Shown piece by piece: positions 6,796 to 61,735 of a stretch of 64,000 nucleotides of DNA. Location of the stretch: assembly GCA_027293415.1 (NCBI GenBank), contig JAPUFX010000066.1, positions 9,779 to 73,778 of the forward strand, in the 5' to 3' direction. The DNA comes from Candidatus Methylomirabilota bacterium. GTDB taxonomy: Bacteria; Methylomirabilota; Methylomirabilia; Methylomirabilales; CSP1-5. The notes beneath the pieces were generated by a model, which ran no database searches, had not been told where the DNA came from, and was given only the letters and a program-made list of their open reading frames with translations. The position numbers and the translations under genes were made by a program. Within the stretch, counting starts at the first letter, position 1. Every line of letters begins with the position of its first letter.

Positions 6796-6909
6796 CCATA
6801 TGAATGATTAAGAGGCAGCCCGAGGTTCTCAGGACGAGAGCACCCAAACGGGAAGGGCCATTTGGAGGCTTGAGAGCGCTGTTTCGTTCGGGGTTATACG
6901 CCTTGGGAT

Positions 6910-6984
6910 GCGGGAATAGCTCAGTGGTAGAGCGCGAGCCTTCCAAGCTCGGGGTCGCGGGTTCGAATCCCGTTTCCCGCTCCA
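6910..6984 (+). tRNA. tRNA-Gly (anticodon UCC)
   Basis: Acceptor stem gcgggaa/ttcccgc, anticodon loop ct-TCC-aa, T-loop GGTTCGAATCC, and CCA. Confidence 0.93.
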
Positions 6985-7058
6985 GCCCGTTTCCATCCCG
7001 GAAAAACGACTCACGGACGGCGGGGGCGCACGGGCCTCACCGAGGCACCTCGAGGAGG

Positions 7059-8318
7059 GTGCGTCCTTGGTGTGTGGTTATCAGCGTCGGGTTCCTCTGC
7101 ACGGGGGTTCCGTTGGCCGCCCAGGCGGTTCCGCTGGCCACTCGGGATGTCGCCACGCATAATCAACGAGGGGTGGAACTCAGTGCCAAGGGGGAGCATC
7201 GCGAGGCGATTGCCGAGTTTGAAAGAGCCTTAAGCCTCGCCCCATCCCATCCGGTGGTCCGGCGGAATCTGGCTCATGCGCACGGAAATCGTGCCGCCCT
7301 GCTGCTTCGGGAGCAGGCCTTCCAGGAGGCGGCGGATCAGTACCAGGCGGCGATTGAGCTGTCACCAAAGGAGCAACGATTTTACGTGGGGCTCGGGGTG
7401 GCTTTTCTCGCCCTCCGGGAGATGCCCCAGGCCGTGGAGGTTTTCAGGCAGGCCCGCGATCTCGACCCACAGAATGTAGAAGTCTATCGGTATCTGGGGG
7501 AGACCTATTACCGACAGGGGGATCCCAAGGAGGCAGTGAGGACCTGGGAAGAAGGGCTGAGAATCCGCCCTGGGGATCAGGAGCTCGAACGGCGTATCGC
7601 CCAAGTCGAAGGGGAACGGCAGGTTCACGAAAGGTACGAGCACCAGACCGGGCACCACTTTGCCCTCCGGTACGTGGGTGAGGTTCCCGAAGAGCTGGGT
7701 GGGGAGATCCTCGAGCTACTGGAACAGGCGTACGACGAGGTGGGGTACGACCTGAACCACTATCCCCAGGACACGGTTGAGGTCATTATCTATTCCGATG
7801 CCGACTTTCAACGGGTCACTCATCTGCCGGGATGGGTTTCTGCGGCATTTGAAGAACGGGGGAGTCGGATCCGCATTCCCATCCGGGGGATCAGGCAGGG
7901 CACAGATCTTCGAGCGCTGTTGTACCATGAATACACCCATGTGGTCATTCGGGACGTTACGGGTGGGAAGGTCCCCACCTGGTTGAATGAGGGATTGGCC
8001 CTGATAGAGCAGCGGACTCCTTTGGATGGCGCGGTCGGGACGGTCCGGCAACTGGCGGACGAGAAGAAACTCCCCTCGTTGGGTGCCCTGAATGGCTCCT
8101 TTGTGAAACTCACAGGGCCGGAGGCGAGTGTTGCCTACGCCGTCAGTTATACGGCCGCCAAATTTCTCATCGAGCGGTGGAGCCGCTGGGACGCGCAGCG
8201 ACTCCTTCGACAGCTCGGCGAGGGGTTGCCCTTTGAAGAAGCGCTGGAGGAGACCACTCGACTGACGCTACCGGAGTTCGAGCAAGAATGGCGCGAATGG
8301 CTCGTTAGGGGATATTGA
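7059..8318 (+). CDS. Secreted TPR-repeat protein with C-terminal MA-clan zinc-peptidase-like domain
   Basis: Signal-like segment WCVVISVGFLCTGVPLAAQA, TPR-like repeats, then HEYTH (HExxH) followed by NEGLA. The track ORF start 6804 runs through tRNA-Gly, so the start was moved to in-frame GTG 7059 (alternative 7074). The start is uncertain. Confidence 0.7.
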   Translation: MRPWCVVISVGFLCTGVPLAAQAVPLATRDVATHNQRGVELSAKGEHREAIAEFERALSLAPSHPVVRRNLAHAHGNRAALLLREQAFQEAADQYQAAIELSPKEQRFYVGLGVAFLALREMPQAVEVFRQARDLDPQNVEVYRYLGETYYRQGDPKEAVRTWEEGLRIRPGDQELERRIAQVEGERQVHERYEHQTGHHFALRYVGEVPEELGGEILELLEQAYDEVGYDLNHYPQDTVEVIIYSDADFQRVTHLPGWVSAAFEERGSRIRIPIRGIRQGTDLRALLYHEYTHVVIRDVTGGKVPTWLNEGLALIEQRTPLDGAVGTVRQLADEKKLPSLGALNGSFVKLTGPEASVAYAVSYTAAKFLIERWSRWDAQRLLRQLGEGLPFEEALEETTRLTLPEFEQEWREWLVRGY

Positions 8319-22862: not shown

Positions 22863-24941
22863 GTGACGGTTAAGGTAGCCAAGGATCGCATTCGAAATAT
22901 CGGGATTATGGCCCACATCGATGCGGGGAAGACGACCACCACCGAACGCGTCCTTTACTATACCGGGAGGACGCACCGAATGGGCGAGGTGGATAGCGGA
23001 TCCGCAGAGATGGATTGGATGGAGCAGGAGAAAGAGCGAGGGATCACTATCACGTCCGCCTCCACCACCTGCTTCTGGCGCGATTATCAAATCAATATTA
23101 TCGATACCCCAGGGCACGTCGACTTCACTGTAGAGGTCGAGCGGTCGCTCCGGGTCCTGGACGGGGCTGTGATGATCTTCGATGCGGTTGCTGGGGTGGA
23201 ACCGCAGTCAGAGACGGTCTGGCGGCAGGCGGACAAGTATCACGTGCCTCGCGTCGCGTTCGTCAACAAAATGGACCGGGTTGGGGCTGACTTCTTCATG
23301 TCGGTGGGGTCCATCGCCGAGCGGCTCGGGGCGCATCCAGTGCCGATGCAGCTCCCACTAGGACAGGAGGCGAGCTATGCTGGCGTCATCGATTTGATCC
23401 GGATGCAAGCCATCGTCTGGGAGGAGGAGTCCTTAGGGGCCGAGTTTCAGATGAGAGAGATTCCTTCGGAGTGTACGGATCAGGCCCTGCAGTACCGCGA
23501 AAAGCTCCTGGAGGCGGTCGCGGAACAGGACGAGTCCTTGCTTCGCAAGTATGTCGAGGGGCGGGAGATCTCGGAACAGGAAATTCGGGCGGCGATCCGT
23601 AAGGCAACATTGGCCCTGAAAATCACACCGGTCATCTGTGGGGCCTCTTTCAGAAATAAGGGAGTTCAACCCTTGCTGGACGCGGTTGTGGATTATCTAC
23701 CCTCGCCCGTGGATCTCCCTCCGGTCACCGGGGTGAATCCCAAGACGGGTGAGGAAGAGAAACGATCGCCGGTCGATGAGGAACCACTGGCCGCTTTGGC
23801 CTTCAAGCTCGTGGCTGACCCCTACGTCGGTCAGCTCTGTTATTTTCGGGTGTATTCCGGAACCATGGAGTCCGGCACCTCCGTCTATAATCCCACCAGG
23901 CGGGTTCGAGAACGGATCGGCCGCCTCCTCCGAATGCACGCCAACAAGCGCGAAGAGGTGAAGAGCGTTCAGGCGGGGAACATCGCCGCTGCCGTCGGCC
24001 TGAAAAGTGCCAAGACGGGTGATACCCTGTGCAATGAAGGTCACCAGATCTTGCTTGAGGCCATTGAGTTTCCGACGCCGGTCCTTTCGGTGGCCATCGA
24101 GCCCAAGACCAAAGAGGGGGCCGAAAGACTTTCCCTCGCACTTCAGGCCTTGGCCAATGAGGATCCCACGTTCCAGACCCGGGGGGACGAGGAGACCGGC
24201 CAGACCATCATTTCTGGCATGGGAGAACTTCACCTCGAGATCATCGTGGATCGCCTCCTCCGGGAGTTCAAGGTGGAAGCCAACGTCGGGCGGCCTCAGG
24301 TGGCTTACCGCGAGACCATCACGCGTCCAGTCGAGGTGGAAAAGAAGTTCGTCCGGCAGACCGGAGGCCGGGGGCAGTACGCCCATGTCTACCTTCACGT
24401 GGAGCCCCAGCAGGCTGGGAGTGGCTTTCGGTTTGAGAAGAAGATTGTGGGAGGGGCGATCCCCCGGGAGTTCATCCCGGCAGTAGAGAAGGGGGTCCGG
24501 GAGGCAGCCGAGAGCGGGATGCTGGCCGGCTATCCGGTGGTCGACATCACGGTGACGCTGACCGACGGATCCTACCATGAGGTAGACTCCTCCGATCTGG
24601 CGTTCAAGATTGCCGGCTCCATGGCTTTCAAGGACGCGGTAAAGCAGGGCCACCCGATCCTCCTCGAGCCGGTGGTGCAGGTGGACGTTGTGGTGCCGGA
24701 GGAGTTTCTCGGCGAGGTGATCAGGGATTTGAACTCTCGGCGGGGTCGGGTTGTGGGGATCGAGACGCGGCCGGCGGCTCGGGTTGTGCGGGCGGAGGTT
24801 CCCCTGGCTACCATGTTTGGTTACGCAACCGATATGAGGTCGGCAACCCAGGGCCGGGCAACCTACACCATGCAGTTCGCTCGCTACGAGCCGCTCCCTG
24901 GAAGTCTTGCCGAGGAGATCATGGGGCGGGTGGCCAGTTGA
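22863..24941 (+). CDS. fusA: Elongation factor G
   Basis: 692 aa. [14 protein letters not shown] and NKMD motifs. Sits in the str-operon position. Confidence 0.97.
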
Positions 24942-40374: not shown

Positions 40375-40803
40375 ATGCGGCATCGGAAACTTCGAAGGAA
40401 GCTCGGACGGACTTCGGCTCATCGAGAGGCCTTGCTGCGCAACCTGACGACTTCTCTGCTTCTCTATGAGAAGATCATCACGACTGTCGCTAAGGCCAAG
40501 GAGCTTCGCAAGATCGCGGAGCGGATGATCACGCTGGCCAAACGAAATGATCTGCACGCCCGCCGACAAGCGGCAGACGTAATCCAGAATGAGCGGGTGT
40601 TGAAGAAGCTCTTTGAGACCATCGGCGAGCGGTACCGGGGGCGCAACGGGGGCTACACCCGAATTACCAAGCTCGAGTATCGGGTGGGGGATGGGGCCCC
40701 CCTGGCTGCGGTCGAACTGGTGGGCGCTGAGGTGAGCCCTGAGGTGGCGGCCAAGCGCGGGAAGAAGGAGAAAAAGAAAGAGAAACAAGCCGCTTCCCCC
40801 TAA
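40375..40803 (+). CDS. rplQ: 50S ribosomal protein L17 with a Lys-rich C-terminal tail
   Basis: 142 aa. [24 protein letters not shown]. Tail is [16 protein letters not shown]. Confidence 0.96.
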
Positions 40804-40820: not shown

Positions 40821-40857
40821 AGCCCTGGAACAACTACGGTTTCAGGGCTTTTCTTTT
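40821..40857 (+). terminator. Rho-independent terminator after rplQ
   Basis: Stem agccctg / cagggct with a 14-nt loop, followed by TTTTCTTTT. Confidence 0.7.
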
Positions 40858-40869
40858 GCCCGGCCTGTG

Positions 40870-41334
40870 CTACTCCTCCTCTATTGTGCCAGTGTACTCG
40901 ATGGCGATCCCCCGCCGTACGCTCTGCGAGGCAGGACACCCCTTCTCATGGATTTCGATCGCCCGCTCAGCGTCCGAACGTTTTCCCTGAGGAACCTTCA
41001 CGTGATAGCGCACGCTGATCTTGGTGATCAGCGGGTGCCCATCGACGTTTTCAATAGAGCCCTCGACCTCTGACCAGAGTTTATCCGGGTGCGTCGGAAT
41101 CTTCCGCGCCGCTAGCGCCACGGCTAGCGTGCCCGTCATTCAGCCCGCCACAGCAGAAATCACGTGATCGAGCGTGGTCGGCAAATCCTCTTCCGGCTCC
41201 ACCCCGTAAAATTTCTTGATCCCGCCGTGGATCCCGTAGTGCACCGGCTCCGTGAATGACTCGATGTAGGCTCGCCGGACCGGCCCTTTGTCTTTGAAGA
41301 TCTTGGTCTTCGAGGTGTGGATCAGTTCTCCCAT
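40870..41334 (-). CDS. OsmC/YhfA-family protein with an in-frame TGA at the conserved Cys position (candidate selenoprotein; track ORFs 41140..41334 and 40870..41139 joined)
   Basis: The two adjacent same-frame minus ORFs read ...DHVISAVAG-TGA-MTGTLAVALAARK... . The second family Cys is present in HEKGCPASQS. A strong SD AGGAGG precedes ATG 41334. The joined length of 154 codons fits the family. Confidence 0.6.
41108..41132 (-). promoter_or_regulatory. SECIS-like mRNA hairpin downstream of the in-frame UGA
   Basis: The mRNA reads UGA AUG ACG GGC A CGCUAGC CGUGGC GCUAGCG GC. A 7-bp perfect stem plus 2 extra pairs starts about 11 nt after the UGA, with G and U in the 6-nt apical loop. Confidence 0.45.
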
Positions 41335-41561
41335 GGTCTCCTCCTGTCTTCAGCGGGGGTCAAACGATCTGCGGGGTGCTTTGCTGGTGGATTTCTACCA
41401 CCGTGTTGGGCGTGGACAAGGTACCAGGCAGGAGTCACCCGCGTCAAGGCAAACATGGTTTTAATTTTTCCCTTTACACCACGACAGGCTGTGTGCTACC
41501 TAGAAGCCCGGGGATTTCCTGCCTGCATCATCAGGTGATGCTGATCATGGGGGGGGATTCC

Positions 41562-43649
41562 ATGAAGGCTTACGAAATCACGCAGATCCGGAATGTGGGG
41601 ATCGTTGCCCATGGACAGGAGGGAAAGACCTCCTTGACGGAGGCAATCCTCTTTGACACCGGGGCGCTGACCCGCCTTGGACGAGTAGAAGAAGGGAATA
41701 CCGCGACCGACTTTGACGAGGGTGAGATCAAGCGGGGGATCAGTATCAGCTCGGCCGTCGCCTTCTGTGAGTGGAAGGGGGTCAAGGTGAATCTCATCGA
41801 TACCCCCGGCTTCTCCAACTTTCTTCCCGACACCCGGATGTGCCTGCGCGTGGCGGATATCGCCCTCATCCTGGTCAGTGCGGTGGACGGGATCAAGGTC
41901 CAGACAGAAAAGGTCTGGGGATATGCGGAGGAGTATGGCCTGCCGGGTGTCTTCTTTGCGAACAAAATGGATCGGGAACGGGCGGATCTTTTTCGTACGG
42001 TCGAGGATATTCGAAAAGGCTTGCATCCCGCAGCCATCCCCTTGCAAATCCCCATAGGGGCCGAGGCTGGCTTCCGCGGGGTGGTGGATCTGTTGGCGAT
42101 GAAGGCGTACACCTTCCAGACCGACGGATCGGGAAAGTTCAAGGAGGAGGAGATACCGGCCGAGCTCAAGGACCGGGCGGGAGAGCTCCAGCATACGCTC
42201 GTTGAGGCGGTGGCGGAGTCGGAAGATAGCTTGCTTGAGCGCTATCTCGAGAGTGGCACGCTGAGCCCCGAAGAGCTGCGGACCGGCATCCGACGGGCTA
42301 TCGCCGCCAGGAAACTCTTCCCCGTCCTTTGCGGGTCGGCGTTAAAGAACATCGGCATCCAGCCTCTACTCGATGTCTTAATCGATATCTGCCCCTCTCC
42401 CTTGGATCGGCCGCTGGTGGAGGGAAAAGACACGAAGTCAAAGGAACGGGTTTCACGGGAGGCGCGGCCAGATGCACCGCTCACGGCGTTGATCTTTAAG
42501 ACCATTGGGGATCCTTACGCCGGCAAGATCAGCGTTTTCCGGGTGTATGCCGGCCGACTGAGTACCGATAGTAGTGTGTATAACGCCGTCAAAGAGACGA
42601 GAGAGCGGATCGGACAGGTATCGCTCCTTCGGGGAAAGCACCAGGTCCCCGTCGACGAAGTGGGCCCGGGAGACATCGGAGCTGTGGTAAAGCTGAAGGA
42701 GACTAGTACAGGGGATACGCTTGCCGACGAAAAATCTTCCATCCTGCTCGACCCCCTCCCTGTGCCCACACCCCTGATTTCTTACGCCATCGCTCCCAAG
42801 TCCAAAGGAGATGAGGAAAAACTGTCTGGGGCCTTAAGCCGCCTCCTGGAAGAGGACCCTAGCCTTAAGGTGAGCCGGGACCAGCAGACCAAGGAGACCA
42901 TTATCTCCGGAATGGGGAAGGTCCACTTGGAGGTGGCGGTGGAACGACTCAAGCGGAGGTTCGGCGTAGACGTCGCCATGAAGACCCCTCGTGTACCGTA
43001 CAAGGAGACGATCCGGGGGACCGCCTCCGTGCAGGGGAAATACAAAAAACAAACGGGGGGCCGTGGACAATACGGCGACTGCTGGATCAAGCTCGAGCCC
43101 ATGCCGCGGGGTGAGAAATACGAATTTGCCAATCAGATCGTCGGCGGGGTGATCCCCAGACAATACATCCCGGCCGTGGAGAAGGGGGTCGTGGAGGCGA
43201 TGGAACGAGGGGTCTTGGCCGGCTATCCCGTGACCGGCGTCAAGGTGAGCCTCTATGATGGATCGTTCCATTCAGTGGACTCTTCGGAGATGGCCTTTAA
43301 GATCGCCGGCTCCATGGCCTTGAAGAAGGGGGTTCAACAGGCCACCCCCATCCTTCTCGAACCGATTATGGCGGTCGAGGTGAGCGCCCCCGACGATGCG
43401 ATCGGGGATGTGATCGGCGATCTCAATTCTCGGCGGGGGCGGGTCATGGGGGTAGAGGGCAGGAGCAAGGGCCAGGTCATCAAGACGCTCGTCCCTCTCG
43501 CGGAAATGCTGGAGTATGCCCCCCAGCTGCGTTCCCTGACCGCAGATCGGGGAGACTACACCATGGAGTTTTCGCATTACGAGGAAGTTCCGGCCCACAT
43601 CCAGGAAAAGCTGGTGGCCGAGGCCAAGCAGGAAGAAAAAGGGGCCTAA
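41562..43649 (+). CDS. Elongation factor G paralog (EF-G2-like translational GTPase)
   Basis: ATG 41562. 695 aa with G motifs AHGQEGKTS, DTPGF and NKMD, and EF-G domains II-V. Clearly diverged from the str-operon fusA. The track start 41376 is a spurious extension. Confidence 0.85.
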   Translation: MKAYEITQIRNVGIVAHGQEGKTSLTEAILFDTGALTRLGRVEEGNTATDFDEGEIKRGISISSAVAFCEWKGVKVNLIDTPGFSNFLPDTRMCLRVADIALILVSAVDGIKVQTEKVWGYAEEYGLPGVFFANKMDRERADLFRTVEDIRKGLHPAAIPLQIPIGAEAGFRGVVDLLAMKAYTFQTDGSGKFKEEEIPAELKDRAGELQHTLVEAVAESEDSLLERYLESGTLSPEELRTGIRRAIAARKLFPVLCGSALKNIGIQPLLDVLIDICPSPLDRPLVEGKDTKSKERVSREARPDAPLTALIFKTIGDPYAGKISVFRVYAGRLSTDSSVYNAVKETRERIGQVSLLRGKHQVPVDEVGPGDIGAVVKLKETSTGDTLADEKSSILLDPLPVPTPLISYAIAPKSKGDEEKLSGALSRLLEEDPSLKVSRDQQTKETIISGMGKVHLEVAVERLKRRFGVDVAMKTPRVPYKETIRGTASVQGKYKKQTGGRGQYGDCWIKLEPMPRGEKYEFANQIVGGVIPRQYIPAVEKGVVEAMERGVLAGYPVTGVKVSLYDGSFHSVDSSEMAFKIAGSMALKKGVQQATPILLEPIMAVEVSAPDDAIGDVIGDLNSRRGRVMGVEGRSKGQVIKTLVPLAEMLEYAPQLRSLTADRGDYTMEFSHYEEVPAHIQEKLVAEAKQEEKGA

Positions 43650-58390: not shown

Positions 58391-58513
58391 GGGGCGGTTC
58401 GGGAAAGGCCTCCTCATCGTCCTCTCCTCCCTCCGAGGTCGGCCTTCCCCTCACCGCTGACGCGGTACTAGCAGCGGTCCACTTGAGGCATTGGAGTAAT
58501 TGGAGTAATTTGG

Positions 58514-58536
58514 TGACAGCTGATCGCTGACAGCTC
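58514..58536. repeat. Class B word run (single arm) before purS
   Basis: tgacagc tgatcgc tgacagc tc, immediately upstream of the purS SD GGGAG. The 9-nt tandem ttggagtaa x2 at 58491-58508 lies next to it. Confidence 0.5.
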
Positions 58537-58546
58537 GGGAGACTGA

Positions 58547-58795
58547 ATGATTCGGGCAAAGGTATACGTGACACTCAAGAGGGGCGTGCTTGATCCACAG
58601 GGCGAGACGGTCAGGGGGGCGCTCGAGACGCTGGGGTTTGCGGAGGTGCAGGATGTTCGGATTGGCAAGTTTATGGTGATCACCCTCAATGCGGTGAATC
58701 GGGAAGACGCCACGAAAAGTGTAGAAGAAATGTGCAAGAAGCTCCTGGCCAACCCGGTCATCGAAGACTACCGCTTCGAGTTGGAGGAAGGGTAG
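58547..58795 (+). CDS. purS: Phosphoribosylformylglycinamidine synthase subunit PurS
   Basis: 82 aa. VYVTLKRGVLDPQGETV. Confidence 0.93.
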   Translation: MIRAKVYVTLKRGVLDPQGETVRGALETLGFAEVQDVRIGKFMVITLNAVNREDATKSVEEMCKKLLANPVIEDYRFELEEG

Positions 58796-59506
58796 GTGCG
58801 ATTCGCGATTATCGTCTTTCCCGGATCCAACTGCGAGCTGGATTGCCAGTGGGTGCTCCACAAGGTCCTGGGGCAAGAGGCAGAGCTCGTCTGGCATAAG
58901 GAAAAGGACCTGAAGGGTTACGATTGCCTGGTCTTGCCGGGGGGGTTTGCCCATGGGGATTATCTCAGAACGGGGGCCGTCGCGCGTTTCTCCCCGATCA
59001 TGAAAGCGGTAGAGCAGCACGCTCGGGGGGGCGGATTGGTGCTCGGGATCTGCAACGGATTTCAAGTTCTCTGCGAGGCCGGACTCCTCCCCGGCGTCCT
59101 GCTCAGAAACACCAGCCTGAACTTTATCTGTCGGGATGTGTACATGCGCGTGGAGACCCCGGAGACACCCTTCACGGCCACCTGCACCGCACGGCAGGTC
59201 CTGCGCGTCCCCATCAACCACAATGAGGGACGGTATTATGCGGATGCCGAGACCCTGGCACGCCTGAAAGACAACGGCCAGGTGGTGTTCCGGTATGTGA
59301 ATTCGGCAGGCGAAATTTCGGATGAGGCGAACCCGAATGGGTCGTTGGACCATATCGCCGGTGTCTGTAACGGACAGAGAAACGTCCTTGGGCTGATGCC
59401 GCACCCTGAGCGGGCGGCGGAAACAGTGCTTGGATCCGCGAGCGGCCGGATCCTTTTTGAGTCGATCATCAGCTCCGGTCAAGCCCTCTCTTCCACCAGT
59501 CGGTGA
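58796..59506 (+). CDS. purQ: Phosphoribosylformylglycinamidine synthase subunit PurQ (glutaminase)
   Basis: 236 aa. FPGSNCE...GICNGFQ catalytic Cys, and HPE at the C-terminus. Confidence 0.95.
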   Translation: MRFAIIVFPGSNCELDCQWVLHKVLGQEAELVWHKEKDLKGYDCLVLPGGFAHGDYLRTGAVARFSPIMKAVEQHARGGGLVLGICNGFQVLCEAGLLPGVLLRNTSLNFICRDVYMRVETPETPFTATCTARQVLRVPINHNEGRYYADAETLARLKDNGQVVFRYVNSAGEISDEANPNGSLDHIAGVCNGQRNVLGLMPHPERAAETVLGSASGRILFESIISSGQALSSTSR

Positions 59507-59509
59507 CGC

Positions 59510-61735
59510 ATGAAAGAACCCGCGATTACCCAAGAAACCATCGCCGCGCACAGTTTGACGCACGAGGAGTACCAGCGTATCCTCGAAATTCTGGGGCGCG
59601 AACCCACCTTTACGGAGTTAGGGATCTTCTCGGTCATGTGGTCCGAGCACTGTAGCTACAAGAGCTCCAAGGTCCATCTTCAGCACTTTCCCACCTCCGG
59701 GCCCAGGATCTTGCAAGGGCCGGGGGAAAATGCCGGGGTGGTCGACCTGGGGGAGGGGCTCACAGCCGTCTTTAAGATGGAAAGCCATAATCATCCTTCG
59801 TACATCGAGCCCTACCAAGGAGCGGCGACAGGGGTGGGTGGAATCATCCGGGACATCTTCACCATGGGGGCGCGTCCGATCATGCTCTTAGACTCCCTTC
59901 GTTTCGGCCCCCTGACCGAGGCCAAGAACCGGTATCTCATGGGTGGGGTGGTGGCAGGGATCTCCGGATACGGGAATGCGGTGGGAGTTCCCACCGTGGG
60001 AGGTGAAGTGGTCTTTGCCGACTGCTACAGCCATAACCCGCTCGTGAACGTGCTCTGTTTAGGGATCGCTCCCATCGATAAGCTCTTCTTTGCGCACGCC
60101 GGGGGGATCGGGAATCCAGTGATCTATGTAGGGGCAAAGACGGGTCGGGACGGGATCCACGGCGCGACGATGGCCTCGGAGACCTTTGACGAGAAGAGTG
60201 AGGAGCGCCGCCCCACCGTGCAGGTTGGCGATCCGTTCCGCGAGAAACTCTTGATCGAGGCCTGCCTGGAACTCATGCAGACTGATACGCTGGTTGGTGT
60301 GCAGGACATGGGAGCGGCCGGCCTCACCTGCTCGAGTTGCGAAATGGCCAGCCGGGGTGGGACCGGCGTCGAAATCGATATCCAGCTCGTTCCGCGCCGG
60401 GAAGAGGGGATGAGCCCGTACGAGGTAATGCTCTCTGAATCGCAGGAACGGATGCTGCTGGTGGTCCGCCAGGGGGCCGAGGCGACCGTTCGCGAGATCT
60501 TTGCCAAGTATGATCTCGACGCAGTGGTCGTGGGCCGGGTGACGGGCGATGGAGTAATGCGGGTGCGGGAGGGAAAACGCACCGTGGCCTCGATCCCGGT
60601 GAAGGCACTCGTGGACGATGCCCCTGTGTACCACCGACCACTGACCCGGCCCGCCTGGCAGGATGACATTCAGCGCCTGAACGTCGACGATATCCCCCTG
60701 CCTCGCGACTATGGAGACGTGCTCTTGCAACTGTTGGCCTCCCCGACCATCGCGTCGAAGGCCATGGTGTGGGAGCAGTATGATCACATGCTCTTTTTGA
60801 ACACGGTGGTTGGACCAGGCTCTGATGCGGTCGTGCTCCGACTCAAAGGGACAGAGAAAGGCATCGCGGTATCCACTGATGGGAACGGGCGATACACCTT
60901 CTTGGATCCCTTCACGGGGGGGATGATTGCTGTGGCCGAAGCGGCCCGGAACGTGGTGGCAAGCGGCGGCGAGCCCGTCGCCATCACTAACTGTCTCAAC
61001 TTCGGTGACCCGACGCGTCCCGAGATCTCCTGGCAGTTCGCCGAGGCGGTTCGCGGGATGGCGGCTGCCTGCCGCATCTTGCAGACACCGGTCACCGGAG
61101 GGAATGTGAGCTTTTACAATGAGACCATGGGAAAGGCCGTCTTCCCTACACCGATCGTGGGGATGCTGGGCATCTTGGCCCACATCTCGCACGCCACTAC
61201 CCAGACCTGGAAGGAGACCGGGGACGTAGTGGTCCTCTTGGGCGAGACACGCGAGGAGTTGGGGGGGAGTGAATATCTGAAGGTCTGCCATGGGATGGTG
61301 CAGGGCCGACCACCGACCGTGGACCTGGAGTTAGAGCGCCGGGTCCAGGGATGCTGTTTGGAAGCGATCCGGGCCGGACTGGTTCGCTCTGCCCATGACT
61401 GCTCAGACGGGGGGCTCGCGGTGACTTTAGCCGAAGGGTGCGTCAGCAATCCCGATAAGCCGATCGGCGTCGACGTAAACCTGGCGGATTCCCTCCGTCC
61501 GGATGCGCTCCTTTTTGGCGAGAGCCAGTCCCGGATACTTCTCTCCCTCCGGGAGGCGGACTTGAATAGGGTCCAGGCGATCGCCGACCACTATGGGGTG
61601 GCGGTCACTCTGATAGGGCGGACGGGCGGCTCCCGATTCATCTGCAAGGGGCAAACGTTTCATCTGGACCTGCCGCTCTCCCTTCTCGATCAGGCTTGGC
61701 GCGGAGCCGTTCCCACCTACTTCGGACAGCGTTGA
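59510..61735 (+). CDS. purL: Phosphoribosylformylglycinamidine synthase subunit PurL
   Basis: 741 aa. ESHNHPS motif. Confidence 0.96.

Follow-up and report, generated by a model that had tools for sequence, protein, structure and literature searches.

OsmC is a two-Cys peroxidase of organic hydroperoxides, and Ohr is reduced by lipoylated proteins. OsmC-like selenoproteins have been catalogued since 2005, when a survey of the Sargasso Sea described an 'OsmC-like protein' selenoprotein family, assigned to COG1765, from three sequences with a UxxT motif and a predicted SECIS element (Zhang, Fomenko & Gladyshev 2005, PMC1088965); what we report here does not overturn current understanding. The family was encountered again in the GOS survey (PMC2398784) and is listed in two reviews. 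Members of NF041052, the 'OsmC-related (seleno)protein' model, that the reviews name include MCS5647933.1 and MBR72571.1. Both surveys bear out the statement, in an earlier sequence-only reading of the DNA analysed here, that OsmC-like proteins figure in metagenomic selenoproteomes. Our literature search found no paper that mentions NF041052, and neither deep-Sep nor Peng 2016 mentions OsmC or NC10. A further parallel is offered by Sec-peroxiredoxins (TxxU) and glutathione peroxidases (UxxT), in which, as we propose for the protein below, selenocysteine (Sec) is the peroxidatic residue and its selenolate the nucleophile, and for which Cys orthologues likewise exist (PMC1088965); their thioredoxin fold, however, is unrelated to the OsmC fold.

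The host phylum has its own selenoprotein record. A 2026 review describes one Methylomirabilota MAG in which 63 selenoproteins are predicted. A 2026 paper on Sec-type [NiFeSe] hydrogenases places these enzymes in nine phyla, Methylomirabilota among them; over all the Sec-type genomes, selABCD was detected in about 90%. Since OsmC-like selenoproteins are known and Methylomirabilota are reported to be heavy users of Sec, neither the phenomenon nor the phylum in which we describe it is surprising.

The window, by which we mean the whole 64-kb stretch of DNA that was analysed, carries on its minus strand two open reading frames (ORFs) that abut in the same frame, 41140..41334 (64 aa) and 40870..41139 (89 aa). 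The sequence-only reading had taken this pair, parted by a single TGA, as one candidate selenoprotein gene split by ORF calling. The ORF list and the minus-strand sequence (...GTG GCG GGC TGA ATG ACG GGC ACG CTA GCC GTG GCG CTA GCG...) agree with it on the layout: the TGA at 41140-41142 is the sole interruption of a joined 154-codon frame running from 41334 to 40870. With Cys placed at codon 65, the joined protein scores 48.6 bits on the Pfam OsmC model PF02566 (cutoff 27.5). The one strong Shine-Dalgarno (SD) element had been placed before ATG 41334; it is there (Table 1), and the window sequence holds nothing comparable ahead of codon 66. We consider it very probable that the two ORFs are one gene of Candidatus Methylomirabilis (NC10), encoding a 154-residue OsmC-type thiol/selenol peroxidase in which the UGA at codon 65 specifies Sec. 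Conservation of the UGA, its pairing with Cys, dN/dS values and a downstream hairpin all support the selenoprotein proposal.

Table 1. Features of the OsmC-like locus and its 3' flank, in window positions
Feature	Position	Strand	Remarks
Complete OsmC-like gene, predicted selenoprotein	40870..41334	-	154 codons plus TAG stop at 40872-40870
In-frame UGA, codon 65, predicted to be read as selenocysteine	41140..41142	-	aligns with the peroxidatic Cys of OsmC
Second Cys, TGT codon 133	40936..40938	-	invariant; aligns with the resolving Cys of OsmC
Shine-Dalgarno element AGGAGGAG	41338..41345	-	ends 3 nt upstream of ATG 41334-41332
bSECIS-type hairpin CGCUAGC-CGUGGC-GCUAGCG	41110..41129	-	7-bp stem, 6-nt apical loop, G at loop position 2
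GC-rich terminator-like hairpin, 11 bp	40821..40849	.	consensus scan only; between the 3' ends of rplQ and the OsmC-like gene

Searches with phmmer and with a family profile gave 1UKK, 1QWI and 1NYE, all of them OsmC, as the best structure matches, followed by Ohr. In the alignments with 1UKK and 1QWI, U65 falls opposite their first catalytic Cys (AAHA[G/A]CFSMAL) and C133 opposite their second ([E/A]GCPVS); in the OsmC/Ohr hydroperoxide reductases these are the peroxidatic and resolving cysteines. The downstream residue that the earlier reading had picked out as the second family Cys is this C133. The Cys homologue P0002, modelled with AlphaFold2 (pLDDT 81, pTM 0.76), has OsmC topology, and the top Foldseek matches to the model were E. 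coli and Thermus OsmC, together with Ohr, at probability 1.0. The fold is thus that of OsmC, with both catalytic positions aligned. YhfA (1ML8) was absent from the PDB profile matches and ranked 26th by fold; the closest solved relatives are OsmC proper, and YhfA is not among them.

The OsmC proteins of E. coli (1QWI/1NYE) and T. thermophilus (1UKK) are the best match in both sequence and fold, and share with the window protein the helix-Cys arrangement and a GCP(A/V)S motif. Identity to them is about 18-20%, and the score on the OsmC model TIGR03562 is 29.4 bits, below its cutoff of 85.8. Unlike OsmC, the window protein has a conserved and distinct 50-residue N-terminal region (MGELIH...RRAYIE...HGGIKKFYG), and Sec would take the place of Cys. 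Ohr (TIGR03561) is alike in fold and in its two-Cys arrangement but is a weaker match than OsmC, at 19.5 bits against a cutoff of 88.85 (profile E = 0.047). The catalogued OsmC-like selenoproteins (COG1765/YhfA, pfam02566, NF041052) resemble the window protein in their PF02566 domain, in the UGA at the first redox Cys position, in a bSECIS hairpin within the coding region and in having Cys homologues. On NF041052, however, the window protein falls short of the 95-bit cutoff, at 19.5 bits. Its clade carries U[ML]TGT where the catalogued family has UxxT, shows no UxxT/YhfA-like affinity, and is found in phyla of soil and groundwater instead of marine plankton.

Within the assembly collection, 54 blocks record an identical 89-aa product, and the synteny of the window is common to the four contigs shown, each from a different assembly and each with that same product. 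The TGA-containing gene is therefore neither a chance arrangement nor a one-off. An orthologue scan with one genome per species returned 80 loci, 56-97% identical at the protein level, from Methylomirabilota, Rokuibacteriota, Nitrospinota, Acidobacteriota (Terriglobia, Bryobacterales, Blastocatellia), Armatimonadota and unclassified MAGs. By tblastn, residues 1-154 aligned in a single frame in 80/80 loci; codon 65 was TGA in 79 of them and TGC in one. Counted over distinct orthologues (56-99% identity), codon 65 is TGA in 81/82 and TGC in 1/82, and this TGA is the only internal stop in 81/82 distinct genes. In a protein search, the matches comprised about 110 clusters (90% identity) whose members, 89-92 aa long, begin exactly at Met/Leu66 and are named 'OsmC family protein' by their sources, as well as a handful of full-length proteins.

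The coding sequence on either side of the TGA evolves under similar constraint. Median dN/dS (Nei-Gojobori, about 1,700 pairs) was 0.22 ahead of the TGA (codons 1-64) and 0.28 beyond it (codons 66-154), indels among orthologues were in-frame only, and there were no frameshifts. The start codon is ATG in 77/81 genes. A single frame is constrained on both sides of a conserved UGA. Decay of the gene, which the earlier reading had itself raised, is excluded by these values. The same observations bear on the possibility that the TGA arose through faulty sequencing or assembly: TGA lies one base from TGC or TGT, and point variants of this codon do exist, as shown by a GGA in the related contig L087, yet neither an error nor a pseudogene can produce an identical split product in 54 collection blocks, a TGA held in orthologues down to 56% identity, and an intact frame with no extra stops. 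We regard both as effectively refuted.

Public annotation calls two ORFs at this locus, and in the window an ATG follows the TGA directly, as it does in 46/82 orthologues. These features would suit a split gene, in which ribosomes terminate at the TGA and reinitiate at the ATG next to it, and polypeptides of 64 and 89 aa assemble an OsmC-like fold that lacks the first catalytic residue. We judge such an arrangement highly unlikely. Codon 66 is ATG in 46 of the 82 genes, CTG in 30, CTC in 4 and CTA in 2; it thus encodes Leu in 36, and CTC and CTA are not start codons. SD matches of at least 5 nt were found upstream of codon 1 in 63/79 orthologues, and upstream of codon 66 in none of the 79 checked. 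The frequency of Leu66 and the absence of an SD before it argue that translation does not restart there. Because Met and Leu also alternate at position 66 in the uninterrupted Cys forms, the ATG of the window is best read as just a Met codon. A split would, moreover, remove precisely the peroxidatic residue.

A genome-wide reassignment of the genetic code was considered and rejected. TGA is the commonest terminator in the window, where it ends 34/55 long ORFs, and it also ends 22/82 of the orthologues themselves; as TGA is an ordinary stop in both settings, the code has not been reassigned.

If the UGA specifies Sec, Cys should be found in its place among homologues, and the sequence-only reading had suggested an alignment to see whether it is. 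Cys does fall exactly opposite the TGA in the full-length homologues P0002 and P0004-P0009. At the DNA level, codon 65 of the Cys forms is TGT in L085, L086 and L089 and TGC in L065. An exhaustive profile search of 1.84 billion representatives (50% identity) gave 270 clusters with E values of 1e-10 or lower. In the top 150 of these 270, 62 representatives that span the site have Cys65, and 49 of the 62 also have C133; about 27 begin exactly at 66 and about 22 end at 63-65. The four Cys forms group together in the neighbour-joining tree, as a single clade nested among the Sec forms. Sec and Cys codons are paired at the catalytic position.

Published criteria for bacterial SECIS (bSECIS) elements specify an apical loop of 3-9 nt with a G in its first two positions and the pattern N1-G-[G/U]-N-N2, a stem of 4-16 bp, a distance of 16-37 nt from the UGA and an energy of -7.5 kcal/mol or lower (PMC13188914). 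The loop of the window hairpin begins 17 nt past the UGA and the energy is -10.4 kcal/mol; the hairpin falls within every one of these limits, loop pattern included. A bSECIS-compliant hairpin lies downstream of the TGA in 78/80 Sec genes; the share among synonymous resamplings is 19%, and at other anchor positions within these genes it is 6%. On this count too the selenoprotein proposal held.

These hairpins follow three designs, each restricted to particular clades. The first (D1), with its loop at +21, is that of the window, Methylomirabilota and Rokuibacteriota; the second (D2), with its loop at +24, belongs to Bryobacterales; and the third (D3), with its loop at +29/30 and the form GCGCGC-UGGAA-GCGCGC, is found in Nitrospinota, other Acidobacteriota and others. 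Two of the pairs in D3 have changed in a compensatory manner (GC<->AU in six sequences, CG<->UA in one), and D3 is 88.8% paired, compared with at most 66% in slid controls. For D1, 97% of cells are paired among 34 clade sequences, with changes that are only wobble-compatible (CTA->CTG) and no double-sided compensatory change among the 34. In each of the three designs, taken in order, the codons that form the hairpin have a lower synonymous codon entropy than the remainder of the gene: 0.53 vs 1.02 (p = 0.008), 0.11 vs 1.06 (p = 2e-5) and 0.49 vs 1.18 (p = 0.018). Both Leu codons in the stem of the window hairpin are CTA, a triplet that accounts for 2.8% of the Leu codons in the window. The SECIS-compliant hairpin is under RNA-level selection. 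The presence of three non-homologous designs around a fixed UGA suggests turnover of the SECIS inside a conserved coding sequence.

Total folding energy was a poorer guide than geometry. For the 48 nt past the UGA, the minimum free energy (MFE) of the window differed significantly from that of synonymous resamplings (z = -2.1), and the family-wide median against synonymous controls was z = -0.6, like that of control regions. Total MFE is thus uninformative across the family, and the explicit test of bSECIS geometry was used instead.

A compliant hairpin is also present in 2/4 true Cys-type genes (Fisher p = 0.01, Sec vs Cys). These are the TGT genes L085:913-1383 (P0004) and L086:23-487 (P0007), which carry a D3-like, SECIS-compliant hairpin (GCGCUGGAAGCGC). 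Either these genes have undergone recent Sec/Cys conversion, or the encoded peptide GALEAR favours the hairpin; in the latter case, switching from Cys to Sec could be made easy. Because two of the four Cys forms comply and GALEAR partly predisposes the sequence to this fold, the hairpin alone is no clean discriminator between the two classes.

DNA alone cannot tell insertion of Sec from insertion of Cys, and some Sec-using phyla are reported to have a tRNA, tRNA-ReC (selC*), that decodes UGA as Cys with the help of a downstream SECIS (PMC13582414). Were a tRNA of this type to decode the UGA, in a SECIS-dependent manner, as Cys or as a mixture of Sec and Cys, or were a near-cognate tRNA to read through it as Trp, the finished product would be an ordinary OsmC with Cys or Trp at this position. 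We think this improbable. Such tRNAs are uncommon, occurring in about 2% of non-UXXU Sec-type genomes, with none reported for Methylomirabilota (PMC13582414), and a Trp at the position of the peroxidatic Cys would inactivate the enzyme. The UGA has, furthermore, been kept across many phyla though TGC and TGT are one mutation away, which is the classical signature of Sec. We infer that the residue inserted is Sec, and not Cys via tRNA-ReC.

A few database entries have other residues at position 65. The 'W' of P0003/L088 is a TGA translated under another genetic code, as confirmed in the DNA, and the database proteins P0123 and P0168 likewise have W. P0143, P0162 and P0174 have R ('AGRMTGT'), which could reflect CGA/AGA variants or frameshifted calls. 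P0001 (L087:657-1121), from a single 1.3-kb metagenome contig, has GGA (Gly) at codon 65 and keeps the D1 hairpin; L087 nests among the Sec forms, nearest L031, and its GGA could be a TGA->GGA mutation, an inactive allele or an assembly error. In P0077, a full-length protein of 159 aa from a 16.9-kb contig, residues from about 50 to 72 are replaced by an Arg-rich stretch (GSPGRRRRRLTDGQYGRRAGC), as if the frame had shifted twice, locally, on either side of the Sec site, whether in the assembly or in the gene call.

With UGA decoded as Sec, expression and catalysis would be expected to proceed as follows. Translation would begin at ATG 41334 behind the strong SD. At the UGA, the hairpin 11-30 nt downstream, with its loop CGUGGC, would recruit the SelB-GTP-Sec-tRNA(Sec) complex, which would outcompete RF2 so that Sec is inserted. 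The product would take the OsmC fold, and the U65 selenolate would attack a hydroperoxide to give a selenenic acid, which C133 would resolve as a selenenylsulfide; a thiol or lipoyl reductant would then regenerate the enzyme. Selenium insertion, SelB binding, peroxidase activity, substrate and reductant are all put forward here as predictions.

More tentatively, we propose that the window protein and its orthologues may form a second Sec lineage of the OsmC superfamily, apart from the UxxT lineage of COG1765/NF041052, from which model scores and the published motif set it off; on this proposal we lean slightly towards doubt. Such a lineage would be OsmC-proper-like, with a U[ML]TGT motif and the conserved 50-residue N-terminal extension, would span at least five soil and groundwater phyla, and would have rebuilt its SECIS in at least three positions and sequences around a fixed UGA. 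Its absence from annotation models would account for the hundreds of entries that stand as 64-aa and 89-aa fragments.

NCBI, JGI and ENA records, and gene callers, divide the gene between a hypothetical protein of 64 aa and an 'OsmC family protein' of 89 aa, and some records translate its TGA as Trp. As a consequence of these split or mistranslated records, peroxide defence and the selenoproteome are under-counted in Methylomirabilota, Rokuibacteriota, Nitrospinota and Acidobacteriota. Several hundred entries would be put right by a profile built for this purpose, with U at position 65. Nitrite-dependent methane oxidisers make O2 internally, and therefore plausibly face peroxide stress; to these organisms our analysis would add a predicted selenium-dependent hydroperoxide reductase. 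The three SECIS designs around one fixed UGA also provide a natural series for studying SECIS turnover in coding sequence.

Contigs of four other assemblies match the window at 99.4-99.5% identity, and a MAG named Candidatus Methylomirabilis sp. does so at 96.8%. Assemblies with this locus include GCA_036475795.1, GCA_044240385.1, GCA_044231025.1 and that of Ca. Methylomirabilis sp. MAG-BB-18 (contig JAAXQN010000114.1); the TGA form is also present in complete-chromosome MAGs, such as OZ240237.1 and OZ244973.1. The OsmC-like gene lies between the tuf/rpoBC/S10/spc/alpha ribosomal-protein region and a divergently transcribed EF-G paralogue, beyond which the window continues with rimP-nusA-ylxR-infB, truB, ribF, pnp and purine genes. 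It is convergent with rplQ (the OsmC-like gene ends at 40870 on the minus strand, rplQ at 40803 on the plus strand), and the terminator-like hairpin between them may terminate both transcripts; its T-run is on the plus strand only, and for the minus-strand gene we therefore infer its role. The synteny with rplQ and the EF-G paralogue is confined to the genus Methylomirabilis (L005-L008). Across phyla the flanking genes differ, and no conserved neighbour there hints at a reductase partner.

Pfam annotation of 20 neighbouring or large ORFs identified the EF-G paralogue, RimP, NusA, YlxR, IF-2, an NrnA-like protein, TruB, RibF, PNPase, an M16 peptidase, pur genes, Hom, CysS and others; SelA, SelB and SelD were found neither in the 64-kb window nor in the fetched loci. 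ARAGORN found no tRNA-Sec in the window or in any fetched locus, and an Rfam search of the window gave just five ordinary tRNAs, none of them tRNA-Sec. The other TGA-split candidates in the window were shadow ORFs and ordinary consecutive operon genes.

According to the earlier reading, the window has no minus-strand gene besides the OsmC-like one; this is plausible, since the other long minus-strand ORF tested (58451-59563, 370 aa) has no Pfam match and shadows a purQ-like gene. This ORF overlaps the plus-strand purQ-like glutamine amidotransferase at 58796-59506 and is probably a GC-rich shadow ORF. On the plus strand, the 504-aa ORF at 6804-8318 overlaps tRNA-Gly (6910-6984) inside a tRNA-Thr/Tyr/Gly/Thr cluster upstream of tuf, and is almost certainly spurious. 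The EF-G paralogue at 41376-43649 (plus strand), with a probable start at about 41547, is a second EF-G-family GTPase with all five EF-G domains, additional to the fusA of the str operon (22863-24941); it diverges from the selenoprotein gene at a distance of about 210 bp.
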